Positions 2,947-38,375 of a DNA stretch of 50,610 nucleotides are shown here, piece after piece. A program made the position numbers and the translations under genes. Position 1 is the stretch's first letter, and every line of letters starts with the position of its first letter. The DNA is taken from the IMG/VR virus record IMGVR_UViG_3300020045_005352, positions 1 through 50,610 of that record. One strand, given 5' to 3'. The notes below the pieces were generated by a model. It was not told where the DNA came from and did not search any database. It saw nothing but the letters and a program-made list of their open reading frames with translations. The stretch is from a virus (taxonomy: Duplodnaviria > Caudoviricetes).

Positions 2947-3113
2947 CTCGTTACACTACACCTGTACTTCTTCTCTCTAAAGAGTAACATGGGTGTAACG
3001 GAAAAGGTGTAACGAGACTACAAAACAGCATATAAAGCATTGGAAAATTTAGTACTTACGTTAAAAATGAGACCCTGTTTTATCGTTACACCTAACAATT
3101 TCTGGGTGTAACG
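2947..3113. repeat. Five GTGTAACG copies in both orientations; candidate replication origin
   Basis: Copies at 2949-2956(-), 2993-3000(+), 3007-3014(+), 3084-3091(-), 3106-3113(+), spanning the helicase 3' end. Confidence 0.7.
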
Positions 3114-4001
3114 TATCGAGGAGGGCTGAATTGCGTGATGAAATTCGTCAAAAGTGAACTTCTTTCCGTTCGTTTTACAGCGAGTTATGAAAGAGTGAGA
3201 TTTTTCAACGGCGTTAATTTCTGCCTGTTTTTCTGACATAGAAAGGGTATAAGATTCAGCGTGGAAGTCCATGGAGAATTTCTTTAGCATGGTTGAATGG
3301 GAGTCCTTCTTTAAGGACATTATGCATTTATTGTCTGATTGGGTGAGGTAGTACATGCCAGTCACATGGGCTTTTAAGAATTGGCTACCCATAAATGGAT
3401 CAGACTTTGGATAATATTTTCCCTCAGCAAAATCATTGGTATTCTTTAATGTGTGGTGGTTAAACCAATTAACACAGCCAAAATGTTTTTGAATACGAGC
3501 AGAGAATTGAGCAAACATTGTGGCATCTTCGCCATCAGATAGACCACCTTTTACCATCGCATAGATTGGGTCAAATACTATGATATCGGGTTCTAAGCAA
3601 AATCTTTCTATACGTTCGATTAGAGCTGCTTCATCTTTCGGGTCAAGAACATTTATACCTATTGTTTCTTCATCGATGTAGATATTGTCGTAGTTGATGT
3701 CGATGATTTGCTTCATATGTTGCATACGTTCTAAAGGTTCCTCAACACCACGCTCAGTTAAACAATAATAAATTTTAAGTGGACGAACTGGTTGAAAGAA
3801 GCCAAAGACGGGGAGTCCTGCGGAAGCTTGAAGTGCCATACAGAGACTTAAAACTGATTTTCCAACACCAGGGTCAGCATAAACCATTATGACTAATTTT
3901 TCGTATATAAAGTTTTCAACAAGTGGTTGGCGGGGAGATATTGGAGAATCTACTAACTCTTTAAGTAGAAGACCAGTATAAGGGGCTTTAGTATTGTTCA
4001 T
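3018..4001 (-). CDS. RecA-fold helicase, RSF1010 RepA/AAA_25-like
   Basis: Walker A YADPGVGKS, Walker B IIVFDP, NHHT and FMGSQ motifs. Confidence 0.85.
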   Translation of the reverse strand: MNNTKAPYTGLLLKELVDSPISPRQPLVENFIYEKLVIMVYADPGVGKSVLSLCMALQASAGLPVFGFFQPVRPLKIYYCLTERGVEEPLERMQHMKQIIDINYDNIYIDEETIGINVLDPKDEAALIERIERFCLEPDIIVFDPIYAMVKGGLSDGEDATMFAQFSARIQKHFGCVNWFNHHTLKNTNDFAEGKYYPKSDPFMGSQFLKAHVTGMYYLTQSDNKCIMSLKKDSHSTMLKKFSMDFHAESYTLSMSEKQAEINAVEKSHSFITRCKTNGKKFTFDEFHHAIQPSSIRYTQKLLGVTIKQGLIFNVSTKFSNALYAVL

Positions 4002-9295: not shown

Positions 9296-9712
9296 ATGAA
9301 AAGTGAGCCAGAAATTATAGTTTCAGATTGTGATAAGACTTTCTTTCTCTCTCATTCATGGATAGTTGGTAATAATGGGTATGTTTATTTAAGAGGTGGA
9401 AGAACTAAAGGAAAACAATGTCTCTTGCATCGTTTGATTTTACAAGCAAAAACAGGTGAAGAAGTTCATCATAAAAACAATAATCCCCTTGATAACAGAC
9501 GAAATAATTTGGAATTAACAACAGCCTCAGAACATCAAAAACATCATGTTTATGGTCTTATTGAAAGAAATGTTGGTAGGAGAAAACACTCATTAATTGG
9601 GAACTGTGAAAATTGTAAGGCTGAATTTAATAAAAATTATTATCATGCAAAAAATAATAGATTTTGTTCAAGAAAATGTTCCGCTTTGTTTAATTGGAGG
9701 AAAAGAAAATGA
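9296..9712 (+). CDS. HNH homing endonuclease
   Basis: GYV..LHRLI..VHHKNNNPLDNRRNNLE; C-terminal CxxC..FCSRKC. Confidence 0.92.
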   Translation: MKSEPEIIVSDCDKTFFLSHSWIVGNNGYVYLRGGRTKGKQCLLHRLILQAKTGEEVHHKNNNPLDNRRNNLELTTASEHQKHHVYGLIERNVGRRKHSLIGNCENCKAEFNKNYYHAKNNRFCSRKCSALFNWRKRK

Positions 9713-17641: not shown

Positions 17642-19063
17642 TCAACCTGTACCGTAGCGAGGGTTGAGCCAGAGGTACTTGATGGGTGTTTGCACCCATT
17701 TATCAAGTCTCTTGCGAGAGTAAGCGAATTTGACCCTGCTTCTGTCAAGGGATTCTCCGTCTTTGTTTGATTTAAACCAGTCATGCTCACCAGAGCCGTC
17801 TGGGTTATTGTCATTACGCCATTTTGCCATGAGTTTTAACTGCATACCACCTGAGTAACCGAGGGTTCTAAGGCGGTTGATATGACCTGTGAATAAAGGG
17901 TAAGGAAGCCCAGAGACTCGTTCATCAGACTTTAAGTTAGCCTGTAGATACCTAGTTAATGGGGTGTTAAAGGCTCTAGAAGGCTTCTTTGGTAGCTCGG
18001 AGTATGGCAGAGTGGGTATTAGGTCAGAATTGTTGTACCAGAGGTCAAAACAGGTGATGATTATTAATGCCAGGATAGCCTCGGTAGGTAAGTGGAGGTC
18101 CTTGAGGTTCGCTGTCGCCCACCATCCAAGAGCAAATTGGAAAGTGAAGCTAAAGCGGGCAGGGATTCTAGGAAGGTGCTTGGATAGGAATCCTAGCATT
18201 AAAAGGAGACTTACTACGGCGAGTATCCAGACTCGGCTTGTCGAAGCCCTTGAAGAGATTAGGACAAGCGGGACAATTCCCACGTAGTAAGAGGTTTCCC
18301 AGTAGCCAATCGCAAGCGACTGAGACCTGAAAAGTTTGGGGAAGATGAGACTGCCTAAGTGCCACCAGGGGACTTTGCCTATGGTAGATACCTTGTGGGT
18401 ACGGATAGTCTTAGGCAAGTATTTAATGAAAGGAATAAGCTGTGGAAGGCCTATTAATATACCCAATGGAACCCACATGAGGTTCCGACCCCACAGTAGG
18501 GACGCAAGTCCACTCACGCCAAGCGTCTGTATTCCTAGAGGGTAGTAGCCTGCTAATAGGGTCATACCACAGCTTAAAGATGAGAGCCAAAGATTGTTTG
18601 TAGATATACCATAGAGAAGCCATGGGAACCAAGCTATGGTGTAGAGGATACAGGGTTGCTGTTTGATGTTGTAGGCAGAGTAGGTGAGGACAAGTGCTCC
18701 AAAGACTGACACGAGTGGGCTTGTCCAGGTTGAAATAAGAAGAAACCAGCCAATAGAAGCCAAAAAAGAATGACAATGTTGCATAGCAACAAACACATTA
18801 AACATTCTATCTTGTCCCAATTTCCTTGTAAGCATTGCGGATATTTTATGAGGAGGGTAAAAGCTAGAGAGCACAGGATGAGCATTAGGAACGAGCCAAA
18901 AATAATCACGTTTATCTCCTCTACCTTGATGTATCCATGATGGAAAGAACGTTGAGAGTAATTCACTGCGAGCCATACTGAAAGGATTACTGTAGACCTT
19001 CCAGAAGAATAATAGGTGGAATAGACCTAGAAAATAGAAGGGTAAGCCTGCCAACTCGTACAA
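17642..19063 (-). CDS. Multi-TM membrane protein, YfhO/GT-C-like
   Basis: Many TM segments; FYPP, WFPWLL, LAGY, QLIP, YVGIVPL, RIPARF patterns. Confidence 0.7.
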   Translation of the reverse strand: MYELAGLPFYFLGLFHLLFFWKVYSNPFSMARSELLSTFFPSWIHQGRGDKRDYFWLVPNAHPVLSSFYPPHKISAMLTRKLGQDRMFNVFVAMQHCHSFLASIGWFLLISTWTSPLVSVFGALVLTYSAYNIKQQPCILYTIAWFPWLLYGISTNNLWLSSLSCGMTLLAGYYPLGIQTLGVSGLASLLWGRNLMWVPLGILIGLPQLIPFIKYLPKTIRTHKVSTIGKVPWWHLGSLIFPKLFRSQSLAIGYWETSYYVGIVPLVLISSRASTSRVWILAVVSLLLMLGFLSKHLPRIPARFSFTFQFALGWWATANLKDLHLPTEAILALIIITCFDLWYNNSDLIPTLPYSELPKKPSRAFNTPLTRYLQANLKSDERVSGLPYPLFTGHINRLRTLGYSGGMQLKLMAKWRNDNNPDGSGEHDWFKSNKDGESLDRSRVKFAYSRKRLDKWVQTPIKYLWLNPRYGTG

Positions 19064-19872
19064 TTCTTACAAGCTCCTTTGTATATCTTGTTTAAGTGTT
19101 CTTGCCTGATTTCTTCAAGCCTCTTAGACTTCCAAACCTCTTCCATTGATGATTCTGGATACTTCCCAAGGACTTCATATCCGAGTTGTGGGACATTGCA
19201 ACAGAAGGTAATTTCGCCATTCCATCGCACAGCCGGTGCAAGCCAGAGGTGGTAACAGGGGTAGCGAGAGGGAACTTTATCCCCACTAATCCCCCACTTA
19301 TTAACATCTATGTTTCCTCCATAATTATGCAAATGCTTTATTTCAACCCTTGGGAACGTCTTCCACTTTTCAAACTCTCCTTTCGGCGTTTCTTCGACGA
19401 GCAATCGAACCATCCCGATTTTCTTGAGTACCCCAATGGTGTGAGAGTCAAAGTTATTTTTCCTCCAGGACCAGATAATCCTATCCACTCCACATGCCAG
19501 GAGGTCTCGGGAGAATTTGTTAAGAACCGTTCCATTCGTCGTGAGAAGGATTGTATGTCGCTTGTCTTTTTCCTTAATGTATCGTATAGCTTCCAATATT
19601 CTGGGGTAGAGGAGGGGCTCGCCGAAAAGGTGTAGAGAGAAGGAGCGTGGTCCATAGTGGTTGCACTCATCGATGATGCTTTTGAACATTTCAAAGTCCA
19701 TGTCCTCCTTACGTTTCTCTCTCGGGCAGTATTCGCAGGAGAGGTTGCAATTTGCGGTGGTCTCTATAAAGATGTGTCTAGGAAACTCTCTGTCAATATA
19801 AGCTTGAGCCGCTAATTTATATACTGGCGTCGGCAGTAACCGGACTAGCGGAGTTAGCGACGTTATTTTCAT
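19027..19872 (-). CDS. Radical SAM/SPASM-domain protein
   Basis: CNLSCEYC, FGEPLL, TTNG; C-terminal C..G..CC..CKNC. Confidence 0.92.
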   Translation of the reverse strand: MKITSLTPLVRLLPTPVYKLAAQAYIDREFPRHIFIETTANCNLSCEYCPREKRKEDMDFEMFKSIIDECNHYGPRSFSLHLFGEPLLYPRILEAIRYIKEKDKRHTILLTTNGTVLNKFSRDLLACGVDRIIWSWRKNNFDSHTIGVLKKIGMVRLLVEETPKGEFEKWKTFPRVEIKHLHNYGGNIDVNKWGISGDKVPSRYPCYHLWLAPAVRWNGEITFCCNVPQLGYEVLGKYPESSMEEVWKSKRLEEIRQEHLNKIYKGACKNCTSWQAYPSIF

Positions 19873-25423: not shown

Positions 25424-26360
25424 CAGCCTTTACCATGATTTCCACGAGTTCAGCAAATCTTACTTTGGGTTCCCAGCCGAGGACTTTCTTCGCTTTCGAG
25501 TAGTCGCCTCTAAGATAGTCCACTTCCGATTGACGTTCCATTGTCGGATTTTGTTCATAGACATCCCAGAAATCCACCCCTCCAGCTTTACAGGCGGCTT
25601 CAAGCCACTCTTTAACAGTGTGAACTTCATTAGTGGCAAGGATGTAGTCATCGGGTTTATCTTGTTGTAGCATAAGCCAAGCTCCCACCATGTACTCTGA
25701 GGCAAGCCCCCAATCTCTCGAAGCGTTGAGGTTGCCAAGAATAATCTTTTTACCTGTGGCTTTGTACTCGGCAATACCTTTGGTGATTTTCCTTGTGACA
25801 AATTCTTCTCCCCTCCGAGGGCTTTCATGGTTGAACATGATTCCACAAGAGATGTGCATATTATAGGCTTCCCGATAGTTCACCGCTTGGTAGTGTGCGA
25901 AGGCTTTGGCACAGCCATAGGGTGAGCGTGGGTAGAAGCGAGTGGTTTCTTTTTGGGGTGTTTCTTGGATTTTACCGAACATTTCGGAAGTCGAGGCTTG
26001 AAATATCCTTGTTTCTCTGTGGAGAGTTCTAGCAGCTTCAAATAGGTTAAGAGCTCCAAGTCCAGTTGCTTCAACGGTTGCAATTGGAGCTTTGAAAGAA
26101 TACTGTACAAACGATTGTGCGGCGAGATTGTAGATTTCATCTGGTTTGGATATGTTGATTGCATGTTCAAGGCTTGACTTGTCGGTCAAGTCTCCTTCTA
26201 TGAGTTTCAGTTTATCTTTGATGTGGTTGATACGCCAATGGTTTGGAGAGGCTGAACGGCGGACTAAGCCATAAACCTCATATCCTTTTTCAAGGAGTAA
26301 ATCTGCCATGTAAGAAGCATCTTGGCCCGTAATCCCCGTGACTAAAGCCCTTTTTTGCAT
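25410..26360 (-). CDS. gmd: GDP-mannose 4,6-dehydratase
   Basis: ALVTGITGQDASY, NLAAQS, QASTSEMFG, PRSPYGCAK, FNHESPRRGEEFVTRKI. Confidence 0.97.
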   Translation of the reverse strand: MQKRALVTGITGQDASYMADLLLEKGYEVYGLVRRSASPNHWRINHIKDKLKLIEGDLTDKSSLEHAINISKPDEIYNLAAQSFVQYSFKAPIATVEATGLGALNLFEAARTLHRETRIFQASTSEMFGKIQETPQKETTRFYPRSPYGCAKAFAHYQAVNYREAYNMHISCGIMFNHESPRRGEEFVTRKITKGIAEYKATGKKIILGNLNASRDWGLASEYMVGAWLMLQQDKPDDYILATNEVHTVKEWLEAACKAGGVDFWDVYEQNPTMERQSEVDYLRGDYSKAKKVLGWEPKVRFAELVEIMVKADETS

Positions 26361-26758
26361 TTTATAAATACTCCTTTTTTATTCCTAAGCTGAGTTTTTA
26401 CATGTTCTTTTCTGTGCTCAGAATTAGACATAATTTGAAGATTAGATATTTTATTATCTAACACATTTCCATTAATATGGTGAACATTTTCAGATGACTT
26501 AAGCTTTCTTCCAAGATGTTTTTCCATTAAAACTCTATGTAAGAACTGTCCACTAGTAACTCTAAGATAACCCCAATTATGCCCTCTTCTTAAACCATCT
26601 TTATAATTAGCATGATTCTTGCCAACATTAAATTCATGATAACATTTTCTAGAACAAAACTTTTTAACTCTAAAATCGGATAATTGTCTACAGCTAAACC
26701 TATCAAAATTACCACTACAATTCTTACACTTCTTTGAAGGTAAAATTAATTTACTCAT
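26342..26758 (-). CDS. HNH homing endonuclease
   Basis: FCSRKC..HRVLMEKHLGRKL..VHHINGNVLDNKISNL. Confidence 0.92.
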   Translation of the reverse strand: MSKLILPSKKCKNCSGNFDRFSCRQLSDFRVKKFCSRKCYHEFNVGKNHANYKDGLRRGHNWGYLRVTSGQFLHRVLMEKHLGRKLKSSENVHHINGNVLDNKISNLQIMSNSEHRKEHVKTQLRNKKGVFIKCKKGL

Positions 26759-31684: not shown

Positions 31685-33118
31685 TTAAAAGAAGCTTTTA
31701 GCTTGGTCATAAATACCACGACCCTGTTGAATCATATTGCCTACAGCTCCTAATGCTCCGCCTTCATCACGAGGTAGTTCAGATTGAGTAATGGAGCTTG
31801 TTTCCGTAGATTTGCCATACATCTGTTTTAGCTTCATAGCTTCATCATAACTCATAGCTGTATTGAACATAATAGTCTGGATGTCCATATCAGCAAGTGC
31901 ATCTAATTGCTGGTATTCTCTGTCACTAATAGCAAGATTTGTTGTAATCATTTCTTTTCTATTTTGTGCAAGAGCATCGGCACGACGAGTGGCTTGGCTA
32001 TCTTGCAGAGCTTGATAGTCTCTAGCAAACACAGAGTCATTCTCGATGTCAGCACCAGGTCGAATGTTCTTCCAGCGATTACGGAAATCATGGAGTTCTT
32101 GAGCGTCTATCTTGTCAAAATCCCTATTGATAGCATCTTGGAGAGCAGGGTCCATTTCCATCATGTTGTCTCTAAAGTTAAAGTTCTTTACAGCTTGAAC
32201 ACTAGGGAGTTGTGAGACATCAGGCATTTGAATACCTGAAGGATAGCCACCTTGCATACCAGACTGAGAACCACTAAACATGGACATAATCTGCTGTCCC
32301 ATGCCTAAACCTTTAGATAATCCACCCATGAGGTCAAATCCCTTACCACCTTGAGCTTGAGGTTGCTGAGGAGCTTGAGTCATCTTGCTTGTGTCAGCAG
32401 GTGCCTGTGGTGCTTGCGGTGCCTGGGGAGTAATCTTTGGTGTAGCAGGAGGAGTCCAACTTCCAGAAGCTCCTTTACCACCAAATTGACCACCACCAGG
32501 GTTGAAGGCTTGCATGATAGGCGACTGGCTTAGTTTATTAGTCCCAAACGGAGACAAAGCCCCAGCCGAAGCCCCACTCTGAAGCATGGAGAAAGGCTGA
32601 ATACTTGACCCAGGAGCAGACTTAAAGTAGTCCATAGGAGCACGTAATGCGGGATTTGAGGCACCTGCGGCGAGCATGCCACCTTGAGGATTAGCTCCCC
32701 CTTGGAAGCCACCACCGAAGCCCATGGCTTTACTTGCGCTACCTGCGAGGCTACTTATACCTTGACCTATGGAACTCGCCGCTCCACCGATGGATTGACC
32801 GAGGTTAGAGCCTAGTTGCCCGACTCCTTGGGTTATTCCAGAAGCGGCGTTGGATAGCCCACTACCCACAGCACTAAAGACGTTGCCGAAGCCCTTGTAA
32901 TACACCCCTTTTCCATCATGGTGGATTTCATCTCTATCAGCACCGATTAAATGCTCTAGCTCGTGGTTAATGAGGTATTTCTGGAGTTCTGCATTGGCAA
33001 CATAGCGGACATAAGCTGTGTTCTTGTTGGTATCAGCAAGTCCAAGAGACATCCCTACTTCCTCATAGGGAAGCTCCTCGAATTCCTTATCTGAGAGTAT
33101 CTGGATTTGGTAGCTCAT
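31685..33118 (-). CDS. Putative ejection protein with N-terminal HExxH mini-domain
   Basis: INHELEHLIG..GVYYKGFG, then a G/S/Q/A low-complexity region. Confidence 0.7.
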   Translation of the reverse strand: MSYQIQILSDKEFEELPYEEVGMSLGLADTNKNTAYVRYVANAELQKYLINHELEHLIGADRDEIHHDGKGVYYKGFGNVFSAVGSGLSNAASGITQGVGQLGSNLGQSIGGAASSIGQGISSLAGSASKAMGFGGGFQGGANPQGGMLAAGASNPALRAPMDYFKSAPGSSIQPFSMLQSGASAGALSPFGTNKLSQSPIMQAFNPGGGQFGGKGASGSWTPPATPKITPQAPQAPQAPADTSKMTQAPQQPQAQGGKGFDLMGGLSKGLGMGQQIMSMFSGSQSGMQGGYPSGIQMPDVSQLPSVQAVKNFNFRDNMMEMDPALQDAINRDFDKIDAQELHDFRNRWKNIRPGADIENDSVFARDYQALQDSQATRRADALAQNRKEMITTNLAISDREYQQLDALADMDIQTIMFNTAMSYDEAMKLKQMYGKSTETSSITQSELPRDEGGALGAVGNMIQQGRGIYDQAKSFF

Positions 33119-33729
33119 CTACCTACCCTCCCCCCGTAGAAGCCTTTAGAGAAGTTACCTTGATTACCTTGTTCTTGGGTGAGGTCGGGTCTAAGTTTAT
33201 CCACATGGCTTCCAGCAAGTTGCCCACCAAGAGCACCTGTACCACCCGAAGCACCCTGCCCAGGACCAGTAGAGATATTTGGAGCCGCAGGACCTGTTTG
33301 AGAAGGACGGAATTCAGGAGACGGCATACCTTGATTAAATCCACTAAAGCCTTGACCTGGTTGTCCTGAACTTTGCTGTTTCATAGCACTTTTCTGACCT
33401 TGAGCCCCGAATAATGCACCAGCACCTGCGCCTGCAGCAGGACCAATACCTGGGATAAAACTAAGAGCTAAAGGTATAATGCTTTGGAAAATTTCCCCGA
33501 ATCCCTTGTAATAAACTCCATTGCGGTAATGGTCAGAGTGTTCTCCCCCATGACCCTCGATTAAATGCTCAAGTTCATGGTTGATAAGATACTTATTGAC
33601 CGCATCCGACTGTGTGTAACGGACATAAGCAGTCTTTGTAGCAGGGTCAGCGACCCCTAAAGACATCTCCATTTCTGGGTAAGGTAGTGATTCAAACTCC
33701 GCATCCGACAGTATTTCTACTTTGTACAT
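33115..33729 (-). CDS. Putative ejection/pilot protein with paralogous HExxH mini-domain
   Basis: INHELEHLIE..GVYYKGFG, then a hydrophobic Gly/Ala stretch. Confidence 0.7.
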   Translation of the reverse strand: MYKVEILSDAEFESLPYPEMEMSLGVADPATKTAYVRYTQSDAVNKYLINHELEHLIEGHGGEHSDHYRNGVYYKGFGEIFQSIIPLALSFIPGIGPAAGAGAGALFGAQGQKSAMKQQSSGQPGQGFSGFNQGMPSPEFRPSQTGPAAPNISTGPGQGASGGTGALGGQLAGSHVDKLRPDLTQEQGNQGNFSKGFYGGRVGR

Positions 33730-34120
33730 TGAGAGGTCTCCTTCTCTTTATTTTAACATGGGGTCCGAGGGGTGCATGGTAGTAGTGACCTTCCAGGACA
33801 TTAAAGTTAGTCTCTATTGCCTCCTGGAGTAAACGGCGTATTGGAAGTTTCCAATTTTGGCAAATCATTTTGTCTATGAATATCTGTTTTCCATCGGGAT
33901 TATCTGGCTTTATTTCCCAAAGTCCTTTGTGGAGGTGTTCTTCCCAGTTGTCTGTGAGGAAGTAAGTAAGTACGGCTTTAACAAAGTAATCCTCTTTGAT
34001 TATCATTACACGTTTACGACGCAACATCTCTTCAAAATAAGCCTTAAAATTATCATATTCTTCGGGATTAATTTGATAATCCCATGAGTTGAATACTTTG
34101 GCTAAGAGGTCAAATGTCAT
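33692..34120 (-). CDS. Putative acyltransferase-fold protein (GNAT/HlyC-like)
   Basis: Sits where podoviruses often carry a GNAT-like gene; DNPDGKQIFIDKMI resembles the HlyC-type G..WIID strand. Weak. Confidence 0.4.
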   Translation of the reverse strand: MTFDLLAKVFNSWDYQINPEEYDNFKAYFEEMLRRKRVMIIKEDYFVKAVLTYFLTDNWEEHLHKGLWEIKPDNPDGKQIFIDKMICQNWKLPIRRLLQEAIETNFNVLEGHYYHAPLGPHVKIKRRRPLNVQSRNTVGCGV

Positions 34121-34779
34121 ACGACCTTTCTAAATGAAATATAGGAACCTGCTTTAATCGAACCTGCAGCCACAGCTCCTACTACATTAGCCGCAAAAGT
34201 TAGGGACCCTGCGCTAGAAGCACCAGTTTGAACAGTTCCTGAAACTTGCAAGTAATTAGCTGTGCTTGCCCCAAAGAATCCAGAGCTTGTTTGGGTATTT
34301 ACAGCATTTATATTTTCTTTAACAACTCCACCATTTGAGCTAATTCCTAAGTATCTCAATACTGCTGTACTTCCTCCAGGAGCATTTATATTGAAGTTTT
34401 GACCAGCTGTGCCACTAGACGTAGAAGCGAATATTTCAAATGTCCATGTTTCTGATACTGCCATCTGGAATGATAATCCAGCAATTATGGTGGGGTCATT
34501 GAATAAAGTATCTGTAGATACTATTGAAGTTCCAAGACCACCAACAGTGCCAGCGTTATATTCAATAAAATCCCAAGAGTTGATGTTGTAGAAATAGAGA
34601 CGTTTAATTGTGCCACTAGCAAAGAATACAAACTCTCCGTTTCTAGCTGTCCAGGAAGGTGGTGTGTTGGCTACAACTTGACCTGAATACTTCCCATAAT
34701 TCAGTATATTGGTCACGTCTTCTTTGAAGTTTTCGGCTTCGTTGCTTAGCTTTGAAAGATTGTAGTCATCGACCTTCAT
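34117..34779 (-). CDS. Virion structural protein (tail needle/fibre-like)
   Basis: S/T/G-rich beta sequence following the tail nozzle gene. Confidence 0.6.
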   Translation of the reverse strand: MKVDDYNLSKLSNEAENFKEDVTNILNYGKYSGQVVANTPPSWTARNGEFVFFASGTIKRLYFYNINSWDFIEYNAGTVGGLGTSIVSTDTLFNDPTIIAGLSFQMAVSETWTFEIFASTSSGTAGQNFNINAPGGSTAVLRYLGISSNGGVVKENINAVNTQTSSGFFGASTANYLQVSGTVQTGASSAGSLTFAANVVGAVAAGSIKAGSYISFRKVV

Positions 34780-35321
34780 ATTAGTTTGACAAACATTTCA
34801 TGTTTTGATATAATAGCTCTATAAAAAGGATAAACCCAATGGACAGAAAAGAATACCAAAGTCAGTATCACAAACTTTATAGAATAAAGAATAAAGAAGA
34901 ACTTGCTAAGAAAAGAAAGGCTTATTACCTTAGAAATAAAGATAAAATTCTTCCTCAAATGAAAAAATACAGACTTGCTAACATTGAAGAAAAAAGAGAA
35001 TATGCCAGAAACTATGTAAGAAACAAATGGGCTAACGATTCTGCTTTCAGAGAAAAACAAACTAAGTGGCTTAAAGAGTATAGAAGAAAAAAAAGAACTA
35101 AGCTTATTTACAAAAACTATAGAGAAATTCATAGACTTAAAATAAATTCTAGAGCCACTCTTAAAAGAGCCATTGATAATGGAGATATAATAAAACCTGA
35201 ATCTTGTGACAACTGTAGAACAAAATGCATCCCACAAGGACATCATCATAAAGGGTACGAGAATCCGTTGGCTGTTATTTGGGTGTGCTCTAAATGCCAT
35301 GCCATTCTCCATCGCAAACAT
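34776..35321 (-). CDS. Antisense bridge ORF spanning the inverted HNH gene
   Basis: 181 codons; the start overlaps the upstream stop (TAATG) and the stop overlaps the downstream start (ATGA). Confidence 0.5.
   Translation of the reverse strand: MFAMENGMAFRAHPNNSQRILVPFMMMSLWDAFCSTVVTRFRFYYISIINGSFKSGSRIYFKSMNFSIVFVNKLSSFFSSILFKPLSLFFSESRIVSPFVSYIVSGIFSFFFNVSKSVFFHLRKNFIFISKVISLSFLSKFFFILYSIKFVILTLVFFSVHWVYPFYRAIISKHEMFVKLI
34786..34814 (+). promoter_or_regulatory. Full-consensus sigma70 promoter, antisense to the late operon
   Basis: TTGACA (34786-34791), 17 bp, TGnTATAAT (34809-34814). Confidence 0.9.
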
Positions 35322-35324
35322 TAA
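34839..35324 (+). CDS. HNH homing endonuclease in inverted orientation
   Basis: Basic N-terminal repeats; KPESCDNC..GHHHKGYENPLAVIWVCSKCHAILH; AAAGGA RBS. Confidence 0.88.
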   Translation: MDRKEYQSQYHKLYRIKNKEELAKKRKAYYLRNKDKILPQMKKYRLANIEEKREYARNYVRNKWANDSAFREKQTKWLKEYRRKKRTKLIYKNYREIHRLKINSRATLKRAIDNGDIIKPESCDNCRTKCIPQGHHHKGYENPLAVIWVCSKCHAILHRKH

Positions 35325-36805
35325 ACTCCTTTCCCAATACCCATGTTATTCAGGTAGTAATCCACCCTTGTTAATTCCCACGGATCGGCTGTGTTACTTG
35401 ATGAAGAAAGCCTGTATTGATAGATATTCTGAGTGACAGGAATGTCTACTGAGTGCTTGATTTGAGTAAGTGAATTTGATTCAACCAAGTTTATACGAGA
35501 TTTTGTAACTGAGAATACTGAGTTAAAATCAAGGCGTTCTTGGTAAACCAATGTCCCTGAAGATGTGGGAGTGAAGTACATATCTATCTTTTGGCTTTTA
35601 TTAACAGCCCCTGGGAGTCTATTGAATAAGAATGGGGAGTCATAAACGTCATTGATAGGTACTTTGATGTCAGTATTTCCTGAGTTAAGTACATGGATAC
35701 GCCCCGAGCGGTCACAAGCCATGAGGTAACTACGACCGCCTGATTGAGCCATAGCCATGGATTGAAATAGTTGGTTAGAATAGGGGTACATGGCTAGGGT
35801 GCGACCATTTAGGACTAAGGCATGGGTTGTTTCTGTGGAGCCAACGCCTATGGCTAAATTAAGGCGGTATTCCTGTTCATTGCGGTCTACTTCAGCATTG
35901 GAGACTATGAGTCCTGAGCCAGCATAAGAAATCTTCTCCATGGCAAATTCACAGAGGCTATTATCATTTTCTACGTTGTCTGAACCAATTAAATCATCAG
36001 AACCGTCGAATATTCTTAAACGGCGTGACCAATCCAAACCGACTACTACTTCACCGTCCTTTAAGGTTATCTTCTTCACGGTACGTGGTACATAACCCCA
36101 GTCCTTAATTTCAAGGTAGGACCAGTCTGGATTACCGCCTACGAAGGTTACACGATAAAGGCGGTAGCGTGTGGAGACATAGAGACGTTTACTAAGGATG
36201 AATGCACAAGTTATCTCATCATCCGCAGAAGAGGGTATCTCAAAGAAATCAGGCCAATCAGAGGTTAATTGAAGAGACTCATCGGCGTAGAAGAAGCCGC
36301 GAGGGCGTGTGGCACTATTGAGTAGAATTAAGAATCCTTGATAATTGATACAGTATTTGGTGGCTGGAGCTGAACCTGGGGCTAGGGATAAAGCGAATGT
36401 TGAACCTGAACCAGCCCAATAGAGAGGTTGGTCATAAGCGTCAGAGGTACAGATTAAAACGTTCTTTGAGCGTTCTAGGTATTGATAGCTTTGAGTCCTT
36501 GTGGTCATTATGGAAGCGAAAGTTATGCCAAGATTTGTAGAGGCGGATATTCCTGTGCCATGAGCGACTACGAGCCACCGCAAGTTAGTAGCCCCAAAAT
36601 CAAACATAGCCCAGCCAGCGGTACCTGCCAAGGCGACTGTATTCATGGTTGATGAGCCTAAACGCTTCTGTATAGAATCATCAAAAGTCCACTTGACGTT
36701 CATACAGTTTGAAGAATCATCTCTGCTACTATCCAAAATGTCGGAGCCAGTGTAGAGACCCTTTTTAAAACTGTCCTGCGTTATAGGTTGTACGCTGCGT
36801 ATCAT
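35321..36805 (-). CDS. Tail nozzle / DNA stabilization protein (tail tubular B, P22 gp10-like)
   Basis: 494 aa beta-rich; NCMNV..IQKRLG N-terminus; follows the adaptor gene. Confidence 0.75.
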   Translation of the reverse strand: MIRSVQPITQDSFKKGLYTGSDILDSSRDDSSNCMNVKWTFDDSIQKRLGSSTMNTVALAGTAGWAMFDFGATNLRWLVVAHGTGISASTNLGITFASIMTTRTQSYQYLERSKNVLICTSDAYDQPLYWAGSGSTFALSLAPGSAPATKYCINYQGFLILLNSATRPRGFFYADESLQLTSDWPDFFEIPSSADDEITCAFILSKRLYVSTRYRLYRVTFVGGNPDWSYLEIKDWGYVPRTVKKITLKDGEVVVGLDWSRRLRIFDGSDDLIGSDNVENDNSLCEFAMEKISYAGSGLIVSNAEVDRNEQEYRLNLAIGVGSTETTHALVLNGRTLAMYPYSNQLFQSMAMAQSGGRSYLMACDRSGRIHVLNSGNTDIKVPINDVYDSPFLFNRLPGAVNKSQKIDMYFTPTSSGTLVYQERLDFNSVFSVTKSRINLVESNSLTQIKHSVDIPVTQNIYQYRLSSSSNTADPWELTRVDYYLNNMGIGKGV

Positions 36806-37914
36806 CTGCGATAGTTGTAATCATCCGTTATCATTGAAATTTCTTGTGAGTAAGTGCGAGTTTTGTAGATTCGCTTACCGTCACTCAAGACTTCGGCAAG
36901 CTGGATTTTGTATGATTCTAAAGCCGGATCGTCCTTATCCGCCGCAAGTTGCAAGAGTGTTCCATAGAGAAGTGCAGGGTGCATACGGGTTGGAATGTCA
37001 GGCATGGAACATATAGTATAACCTGTTGTACCTACGCCTGAGACTCCAAAGGCTACTGATAAAGTAAGGCTAGAGTTGTGGGTAATACTTTGGATTCGGT
37101 ACCACTCGGAATCTGCACCTGTTCCAAGAACGTCTATACGGAGATAGTCACCTGTCTTGGCTTCGGTGAAGAAGGTTGTGCCTGCGCTTCCTACGACTGC
37201 CGTGGCTAGAGAGTTAATAGTTACAAAACCAGAGGTAGTCTCACGCATTGGGACAAGTCTTTTGATGTAGTCGTAAGGCAGAGATATTGTGGACTTAGGA
37301 GGCGGATTGAATTCTACCAGAGTACGCCCATTGGTATCGGTTCCGAATTGCCTACACATTGTGGGTAAGTCTTGTGGGGTGGCACTATAGTCTCGGTTAA
37401 ACTCTTGAGGAGATTTCTCTGGTATCTGTGTGGGTCTATTGCCTACGAATTTAGTGACCCCTTGGTCTTTAAGAAAGCGGTCGAAGTCTGTTGCTAAAGG
37501 ATAATAAGGGGCAAATATATCATAACCAACACTCGTGACATTTTGAGTGCCAGAGAAGGGTGGATTTATGCTCAAAGAGTTTGCAGCTACATAAGTTACG
37601 TCATAGACATAATCGTTGCCATCTATGCGGAGTTTTCGGCCTGTGAAGTCTGCGGTTAAGGCTACATCTGAGGAGAATACTACGGTTGTGCCACCAGTCA
37701 CCCCTGTGACTGTGCCTGTGTTGTAGCGTGGAGTAAGGGTCAAGGCTGAGGAAACCATGAGGAATGACCAGTCCTCTTTGCGAGGGAGTTCTCTCACGTA
37801 AACATCATTGACTATGCCACGAACCTTTTTTTCTACATCTGCCGACTCACGGGCAAGTTCTGAGGCTCGTTCGACTATTTCGGTAAAGGGTATCTCGCTT
37901 ATATTTTTTGCCAT
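36802..37914 (-). CDS. Head-tail adaptor (tail tubular A-like) with inserted beta domains
   Basis: Helical N-terminus ..DWSFL, YPLATDFDR, PDIP..H.ALLYG C-terminus; two GTVT-type inserts. Confidence 0.75.
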   Translation of the reverse strand: MAKNISEIPFTEIVERASELARESADVEKKVRGIVNDVYVRELPRKEDWSFLMVSSALTLTPRYNTGTVTGVTGGTTVVFSSDVALTADFTGRKLRIDGNDYVYDVTYVAANSLSINPPFSGTQNVTSVGYDIFAPYYPLATDFDRFLKDQGVTKFVGNRPTQIPEKSPQEFNRDYSATPQDLPTMCRQFGTDTNGRTLVEFNPPPKSTISLPYDYIKRLVPMRETTSGFVTINSLATAVVGSAGTTFFTEAKTGDYLRIDVLGTGADSEWYRIQSITHNSSLTLSVAFGVSGVGTTGYTICSMPDIPTRMHPALLYGTLLQLAADKDDPALESYKIQLAEVLSDGKRIYKTRTYSQEISMITDDYNYRR

Positions 37915-38193: not shown

Positions 38194-38375
38194 GAGATGC
38201 CTAGTCTAATAAACGCAGGGATAATATCCTGCAAAATTTGTTTACCTAAGTCCCAAATAGCGGTACTTGTGAAGTCTGCTTTCTGTAAGAAAGCCCCCAA
38301 AGCAATAAAAACAAGCCCTGTGACTGCCAAGTATGTTTTCTTACCGCTTAACCATGCTGATAGCGCACCCATCAC
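38181..38375 (-). CDS. Holin-like small membrane protein
   Basis: WLSGKKTY followed by a TM segment and ..FIRLGISK; Met-Met start after GGAGG. Confidence 0.7.
   Translation of the reverse strand: MMGALSAWLSGKKTYLAVTGLVFIALGAFLQKADFTSTAIWDLGKQILQDIIPAFIRLGISKNK

Follow-up and report, generated by a model that had tools for sequence, protein, structure and literature searches.

An inverted HNH gene between two tail-operon genes

The stretch of DNA analysed here (the window) is the complete virus record IMGVR_UViG_3300020045_005352 (Caudoviricetes; 50,610 bp, 41.9% guanine-plus-cytosine (GC) content), whose early genes form a block on the + strand and whose structural genes form a long one on the − strand. 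Within the structural block, a predicted HNH endonuclease gene lies backwards between two consecutive tail-operon genes, and the strand opposite to it is a single open reading frame (ORF) of 181 codons, hereafter the bridge ORF, which begins in the stop codon of the upstream gene and ends in the start codon of the downstream gene. A preliminary description, made from the sequence alone, had reported the backward HNH gene, its stop-free opposite strand, a TAATG at 35323–35319 and an ATGA at 34779–34776, and all of these coordinates were confirmed. The features of the junction are the following.

35321..36805, − strand: upstream tail gene, 494 amino acids; nozzle/P22 gp10-like by language-model lead only
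34776..35321, − strand: bridge ORF of 181 codons, antisense to the HNH gene and codon-aligned with it, running from TAATG to ATGA
34839..35324, + strand: HNH-type (His-Me finger) endonuclease gene, 161 amino acids, 32% GC, PHROG 2340
34826..34830, + strand: AAGGA, Shine–Dalgarno (SD) sequence of the HNH gene, 8 nt before its ATG
34786..34814, + strand: sigma-70 promoter belonging to the HNH gene itself, TTGACA-17-TATAAT, its −10 box preceded by TG; a 12/12 match
34117..34779, − strand: downstream tail-operon gene, 220 amino acids, whose ATG overlaps the bridge TGA as ATGA

The bridge ORF spans the entire inverted HNH gene together with its promoter. The 3' end of the 494-aa gene reads ...GGAAAGGAGTTTAA; its TAA (35323–35321) shares one base with the bridge ATG (35321–35319), and an AAGGAG lies within its last codons, 4 nt before that ATG. 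At the far end, the bridge TGA (34778–34776) overlaps the ATG of the 220-aa gene (34779–34777). The TAA of the HNH gene (35322–35324) overlaps the stop of the 494-aa gene by 2 nt, and the two ORFs overlap by 4 nt (35321–35324). As had been described, the 220-aa gene has no SD-like sequence of four or more nucleotides within 25 nt upstream, compared with SD-like sequences at 46 of 82 roughly called genes of this genome; the −35 box of the HNH promoter lies 7–12 nt from its ATG, leaving no space for an SD there. The promoter is the sole 12/12 match genome-wide (0.02 expected), and no promoter-like or terminator-like site was found on the operon strand inside the inserted segment.

The HNH protein matched PHROG 2340 ('endonuclease') at E 8.6e-21 and had 9,205 relatives at E ≤ 0.001 among 1.84 billion representative sequences, the best at 43–46% identity, with homologues annotated as HNH or homing endonucleases. 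An alignment of 12 sequences contains the invariant residues C123, C126, H135, H136, C150, C153, H154 and H158 (CxxC...HH...CxxCH...H), and the structure model (predicted local distance difference test score 90.9) ends in a C-terminal strand-strand-helix. A Pfam scan of six window proteins, including this one, gave no matches, nor did the HNH profile against PDB sequences, and a Foldseek search of the model against the PDB returned nothing at E ≤ 0.001, with the HNH structures 5h0m and 6ghc appearing only at E 4.4. As these searches gave no significant match, the HNH label rests on the motif, the PHROG match and the annotation of homologues, from which we predict that 34839..35324 is a free-standing HNH homing endonuclease gene. 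The gene caller used by the source annotated the 181-aa ORF and left out the HNH gene, so that the endonuclease is missing from a collection of ~15 billion proteins.

The 'tail nozzle' identity given to the 494-aa protein in the preliminary description is retained as a lead: a language-model look-up places the protein near clusters with PF11134 (Phage_stabilise), while Pfam and PHROGs searches returned no match. Many of its homologues (within P0010–P0118) are ~720–770 aa long owing to an insertion of ~250 residues after about residue 63, often PF13385 (Laminin_G_3), and the window protein is a short form among them.

Relatives without the HNH gene and the extent of the cassette

Against 50,697 deposited phage records, neither a blastn search with region 33600–37000 nor a tblastn search with the 494-aa protein gave a match. 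When viral contigs were scanned with a single sequence, the nozzle-like protein yielded 0 loci and the HNH protein one weak locus (L015); profiles were needed to collect loci. With a profile built from the 494-aa protein, 85 loci were collected, 14 of them viral and 71 metagenomic (some contigs are duplicated between the collections; loci are cited below by L numbers).

Two of these loci lack the 3' end of the gene, 10 lack a tblastn match for the 220-aa protein and 3 have an insertion of >100 nt, leaving 70 readable junctions. In 43 of them there is overlap between the downstream start and the upstream stop or 3' end, in 9 the start follows after 0–15 nt and in 3 after 16–60 nt; at the remaining 15 the search rule found no ATG, GTG or TTG. 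Since the genes abut or overlap at 52 of 70 junctions, HNH-free relatives mostly couple the two tail genes directly, which the preliminary description had suggested checking.

The HNH gene is sporadic. It is absent from L028, L050, L088, L029 and L030 (69–86% nozzle identity), of which the first four are the closest relatives (77–86% identity), and present at the same junction in the more distant L031, L053 and L055 (50–63% nozzle identity). PHROG 2340 was sought across the whole contigs of five relatives and found in none (0/5). The HNH-free junction of L028 reads ...GGAAAGGAG-CGCTGTAGCC-ACGAAGG..., from which L029 and L088 differ by a few bases, and comparison with the four closest relatives delimits the inserted segment.

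34780..35325, no strand assigned: cassette, approximate extent, ~546 nt replacing ~10 nt (CGCTGTAGCC in L028), relative to L028, L050, L029 and L088

The replaced segment contains the stop of the 494-aa gene and the start and stop of the bridge ORF. Because the TAATG lies inside it, this junction arrived with the cassette or its flanks and did not pre-exist at the site. The ATGA junction lies at the ambiguous right edge of the replacement, where the closest relatives already have ACGA, so that the novelty is limited to ATG in place of ACG. Opposite the ATG of the 220-aa gene, the alignment shows ACG in L028 (4486–4493), L050 (762–769) and L029 (1870–1876) and GTC in L088 (355–362); no in-frame ATG, GTG or TTG precedes the next upstream stop in L028, L050 and L088, and L029 has just a TTG 6 codons upstream. 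The 220-aa homologues of these four relatives otherwise have an N-terminus near-identical to that of the window, which suggests that the protein is made there from a non-canonical start or by some other route of synthesis. The idea that the bridge ATG and its SD sequence are a relic of the original start of the downstream gene was rejected, as the HNH-free junction reads ...GGAGCGCTGTAGCCACGAAGG and the TAATG falls within the replaced segment. A donor phage with a TAATG junction is possible.

Absence of antisense stops opposite the window HNH gene

As the HNH and bridge frames are codon-aligned, antisense stops can arise only from the HNH codons TTA, CTA and TCA. None of the 16 Leu and Ser codons of the window HNH gene (11 Leu, 5 Ser) is one of these three, with CTT used for 9/11 Leu and TCT for 4/5 Ser, whereas genome-wide the three account for 38% of Leu and 24% of Ser codons. 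The probability of finding no antisense stop in this gene is 1.3e-3 under genome usage, 1.0e-4 under the usage of 7 low-GC genes, 1.1e-3 under that of 26 late genes, 1.4e-4 under that of the genome's three other HNH genes, 3.5e-5 under that of 11 homologues and 3.8e-4 under that of 44 co-oriented HNH genes. The 59-nt spacer was open in 17% of 20,000 shuffles.

The three other HNH endonuclease genes of the genome (1261..1746 (+), 9296..9712 (+) and 26342..26758 (−); PHROG matches at E 2e-50 to 1e-12, two at ~30% GC) are all co-oriented with their neighbours and contain 6, 9 and 9 antisense-stop codons. Twelve HNH homologues from phage records are likewise all co-oriented with their neighbours, and the 11 with an annotated coding sequence have 1–10 antisense-stop codons, which leaves no open frame among them. 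Shadow ORFs are typically longest in the codon-aligned antisense frame. Among ordinary operon-strand ORFs of 120–260 aa from related loci, at least 85% of this frame was open in 0/57 at GC <0.40 and in 4/129 overall, and in none of the 129 was it fully open. The open antisense frame of the window HNH gene is not chance, and the supposition that such ORFs are not common by chance is borne out by the codon-usage models, the co-oriented HNH genes and the ordinary-gene baseline alike.

Other inverted cassettes in the same phage group

The 85 loci contain six complete inverted HNH cassettes (the window, L031, L045, L053, L094 and L006) and one partial cassette (L055, cut by the contig end). The junction of the window holds an inverted HNH gene also in L031, L045, L053 and L055. 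HNH matches of seven queries in these loci were all opposite to the operon strand (6 loci, 0 co-oriented). An antisense ORF of the bridge type recurs in five of the six complete cassettes, across three HNH families and three gene junctions, and antisense stops are absent from the 8–20 Leu and Ser codons of each of the window, L031, L094 and L045. The four further cassettes with such an ORF are the following.

L031: family A, 42% identical to the window HNH; 0 antisense stops; TAGTG start after AGGAGG; ORF ends 40 nt before a TTG start with AAGGA upstream
L045: Pfam HNH_3, no similarity to the window HNH; 0 antisense stops; CTT 9/10 Leu, TCT 7/10 Ser; possible GTG start 5 nt past the upstream TAG, end as ATGA on the downstream ATG; spacing 544 nt, equal to that of the window
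L094: family A, 38% identity; between homologues of the 220-aa and 142-aa genes; 0 antisense stops, TAGTG...ATGA
L006: HNH_3, upstream of a homologue of the 370-aa gene; 163-codon antisense ORF with its own GAAGGAG, ending 3 nt before the next ATG; CTT 9/11 Leu

The exact double overlap is thus found in the window and L094, at different junctions. The preliminary description had suggested looking for it in other inverted HNH insertions; it was present in full in L094 and at the ATGA end in L045, was reduced to a full-length ORF in L031 and L006, and was missing in L053, where the frame is closed. Beside the downstream start, all of these cassettes have a −35 box resembling TTGACA and, after a spacer of 17 nt, a −10 box of the form TAnnnT, save L006, where the promoter scan found none. 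In a screen for further inverted genes, 42 ORFs came up as candidates, of which only these five HNH genes looked real within the operon; two more inverted candidates were noted, at L002 10699..11220 and L056 478..1440.

A wider sample, collected with a family-A HNH profile, comprised 79 viral loci, with an intact HNH ORF in 78. By an ORF-length heuristic, 35 of the 78 are co-oriented with both flanks; the antisense frame is fully open in none of these and at least 85% open in 2, with a median open run covering 0.45 of the gene. The operon-inverted genes of L099, L102a, L102b (=L120), L105, L108 (~L102a), L134 and L157 are 0.90–1.00 open (0.91–1.00 when the near-copies are set aside), with ORFs of 128–190 codons. 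Genes at divergent or convergent block boundaries are closed (0.14–0.80 open), and four loci at GC 0.65 are open yet uninformative. Pooled over non-redundant cases, at least 85% of the antisense frame is open in 11/12 inverted versus 2/44 co-oriented genes, and all of it in 6/12 versus 0/44; openness goes with orientation. The pooled count omits L055 (partial), L108 and L120 (near-copies) and L149, with which the first figure becomes 11/13.

Two loci of this sample have further peculiarities. In L102, two inverted family-A HNH genes (2279–2686 and 3108–3485) lie within ~1.2 kb of one operon, with antisense ORFs of 128 and 167 codons. In L099, a transfer RNA gene, tRNA-Thr (CGT), at 3087–3160 (−) separates the upstream gene from the beginning of the antisense bridge ORF and adjoins the inverted HNH gene, which itself lies just upstream of a 482-aa gene that resembles a large terminase subunit by eye and is a candidate for one.

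Proposed ribosome passage across the cassette and alternative explanations

We conclude from these comparisons that the antisense frame and its junctions are probably under selection. The reading that we favour, with a probability of roughly 0.7, is that an autonomous inverted HNH cassette is crossed by ribosomes by way of the bridge ORF, with selection acting on openness and junctions. This is the most economical account and was put forward in the preliminary description, whose three suggested computational checks all turned out in its favour. The cassette (consensus promoter, SD and HNH gene) would have inserted backwards at a stop/start junction of coupled tail genes, and in the late-operon messenger RNA (mRNA) it would read as a single 181-codon ORF. 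A ribosome finishing the 494-aa gene at UAA would restart on the overlapping AUG (UAAUG, with AAGGAG 4 nt upstream), cross the cassette, stop at the UGA that overlaps the AUG of the 220-aa gene (AUGA) and restart there. Such a relay would substitute for the direct coupling of HNH-free relatives, and 540 nt of otherwise untranslated U-rich RNA would stay covered by ribosomes, guarding against polarity and decay. Selection would then concern only the absence of stops and the two junctions, the Phe/Ser-rich product being a by-product. While the geometry is read directly from the DNA, we infer the translation of the bridge ORF, the re-initiation and the relief of polarity. In the window, L094 and L045 both ends have a geometry that suits termination and re-initiation; that of L031, L006 and the distant cases suits cover by ribosomes, with an independent start close by.

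Several observations weigh against this reading. The frame opposite the L053 gene, a family-A member at the same junction as the window, has 7 antisense stops and closes after 74 codons, and the inverted gene of L149 (GC 0.55) has one central stop. The ORFs of the distant inverted cases start −29 to +134 nt from the upstream stop and end 11–126 nt before the next start, and as they end short of genes with their own SD, exact re-initiation coupling is not general, although ribosome cover may be. Inverted family-A genes cluster on a quick tree, on which the inversion label needs 4 changes, 2 of them forced, so the 12 pooled cases are not independent and the Fisher p value of 6e-9 for at least 85% openness is too small. 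The orientation classes were assigned by ORF-length heuristics and then by non-blind manual inspection. The operon-strand RNA over the cassette contains 0.159 C and 0.154 G, which is not typical of a C-rich, G-poor Rho site; with C close to G, composition of this kind was dropped as support. Lastly, a hydrophobic by-product of 181 aa could be costly.

In one alternative the ORF gives ribosome cover only: translation would keep the cassette RNA from termination by Rho, from attack by RNases or from pairing with the mRNA of the HNH gene, and the 220-aa gene would start independently. What is common to all cases is coverage of the cassette rather than the exact junction, since the ORF ends 11–126 nt before the next start in L031 and in all 8 of the distant inverted cases (6 non-redundant), with SD-like sequences before several of those starts. 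We nevertheless regard cover alone as unlikely. Under it the ATGA overlap would not be needed for re-initiation, yet stop and start overlap in this way in the window, L045 and L094 and are 3 nt apart in L006; the 220-aa gene of the window has no SD, stop and start overlap at 43 of 70 HNH-free junctions, and the RNA composition is not rut-like.

It is much less probable that the antisense ORF encodes a functional protein, such as a small membrane protein, and forms a true two-strand overlapping gene pair with the HNH gene. The SD and ATG, the choice of the source's gene caller and the hydrophobic 19-residue stretches of the product (F 18%, S 16%, I 10%) would agree with this, but the composition merely complements a Lys/Arg/Glu-rich HNH gene, mirroring the Lys/Arg-rich gene on the other strand, and the long hydrophobic stretches are missing in L006 and L045. 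No homologue of the bridge protein was found among 5.8 billion proteins, and bridge proteins are less conserved than the HNH proteins that they overlap (30–31% versus 38–42% identity), while ORFs opposite three unrelated HNH families cannot form one protein family. The bridge product therefore seems incidental, which is what the preliminary description had allowed for.

We give least credence to chance or a codon quirk of the HNH lineage (CTT/TCT preference in an aligned antisense frame that is generally the most open), for which the clustering of inverted family-A genes makes a shared bias conceivable and the co-oriented genes of L111 and L113 are 0.98 and 0.91 open, but against which P is at most 1.3e-3 for the window by itself, two unrelated HNH_3 genes (L045 and L006) are biased alike when inverted, TTA, CTA and TCA occur freely in L053, a member of the same clade, and 5 times in L145, another member (class '?+', downstream flank co-oriented), family-A members are just 36–42% identical, so that synonymous sites are saturated, contrary to an inherited bias, and HNH codon usage cannot account for the open spacer or the exact junctions.

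Other features of the genome

Several features of the genome lie apart from this junction. A 327-aa gene at 3018–4001 (−), with weak primase/helicase PHROG matches, lies backwards within the early + block, and its antisense frames are closed, with longest runs of 37–46 codons. A 281-aa ORF at 19027–19872 (−) is accompanied by a codon-aligned antisense ORF of 149 codons at 19186–19635 (+), which a greedy gene list wrongly chose; half-length shadow ORFs do arise in this genome, here at 46% GC. The consecutive genes at 31685–33118 and 33115–33729 (−; 477 and 204 aa) have in common, at the N-terminus, a module (...LSD.EFE.LPY...HELEHL...) that includes an HExxH-like motif and leads into low-complexity tails rich in Gly, Gln and Pro, and relatives carry 2–3 such genes in tandem. 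A hairpin at 38214–38233, terminator-like on either strand, lies where 0.7 kb separate the 370-aa gene from the − strand genes upstream; the structural block may be split there into two transcription units.

Comparison with known systems

Group I introns and inteins that carry homing endonuclease genes (HEGs) face the same problem, that of neutralising a selfish endonuclease insertion for the expression of the host gene. There, the insertion is removed at the RNA or the protein level. The window insertion, unlike these, is proposed to be not removed but translated through.

Like the free-standing HEGs of T-even phages, the window HNH gene is intergenic and sporadically distributed (PMC2988022). 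That review states that an invader must suit the expression programme of its host and that an opposite promoter would yield antisense transcripts, and it mentions T4 segD as being in antisense orientation; the T4 HEGs are mostly co-oriented and controlled by promoters, terminators and hairpins, and its passages on them describe no antisense pass-through ORF. The same source, in its treatment of T4, gives translational coupling by stop/start overlap at nrdA/mobE (UAAUGA) and between the clamp-loader genes gp44 and gp62. The window resembles such phage operon coupling in its TAATG/ATGA-type junctions and in a downstream start without SD, and its HNH-free relatives are joined in this way; however, classical coupling links two functional genes directly, whereas here a relay of 181 codons without apparent function of its own stands between them. 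The bridge ORF also resembles the shadow ORFs and antisense overlapping genes discussed in PMC8850804, in being a long ORF codon-aligned antisense to a real gene; here, selection would appear to act on openness and junctions rather than on the protein.

A full-text literature search (supplements not covered) turned up no account of a pass-through ORF lying antisense to a homing endonuclease. Nearest among published systems is the ShiLan-domain 'hidden HNH' in mycobacteriophage DNA methylase genes (Arsenault, Gosselin and Gogarten 2025, PMC11855218), where, as in the window, an HNH insertion is tolerated unspliced, a stop-free host-gene frame runs across it and the insertion is sporadic in close relatives. 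As that article describes it, the ShiLan HNH shares the strand of the host ORF within which it lies, out of frame, and its sequence is translated into the host protein; by comparison with that account, the window HNH gene is encoded on the other strand and has a consensus promoter and an SD of its own, and the frame that stays open is a distinct ORF delimited by stop/start overlaps with the genes on either side. The words antisense, reverse, opposite and complement do not occur in that article. A same-strand pass-through was also noticed in seven loci of the wider sample (L103, L106, L107, L109, L111, L112 and L113), whose closely related co-oriented family-A HNH genes (~170 aa, GC 0.33–0.36) each lie wholly within a stop-free same-strand +1 frame of 264–286 codons (e.g. 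L111:2274–3072 around the HNH gene at 2336–2848), running from near the end of the upstream (capsid-like) gene to just before the next start. These seven are like the ShiLan pass-through, but at a gene junction.

On the sequence evidence, our verdict is that the arrangement is a real feature and would represent an antisense, intergenic, relay variant of HEG tolerance by translation through the insertion, new but related to the ShiLan type. More broadly, inverted HEG cassettes could be distinct and widespread 'translation-transparent' mobile elements, with an early promoter on one strand and a relay ORF, upstream stop and junctions on the other, a generalisation on which we see the balance as even. 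A sequence-only signature for such elements would be an inverted HEG with an open aligned antisense frame and junction overlaps. The window also exemplifies an annotation trap, in that the caller retained a 181-aa by-product instead of the HNH gene; if these elements are real, gene callers systematically annotate the relay ORF and overlook the endonuclease.

If ribosomes do cross the cassette, this would be a simple and hitherto undescribed route by which a HEG becomes harmless in an essential coupled operon, requiring only the avoidance of three codons and two overlapping junctions, with no ribozyme and no protein splicing, and the extreme CTT/TCT bias of these HNH genes would be explained. 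It would also offer a natural system for gauging how far polycistronic phage mRNAs are shielded by re-initiation relays and by cover with ribosomes. Were inverted HEG cassettes a class of the wider kind considered above, they could enter, backwards and unspliced, any stop/start junction of a coupled phage operon, and, alongside the hidden HNH genes of the same-strand type, 'being translated through' would constitute a third general strategy of neutrality for selfish elements, beside introns and inteins.

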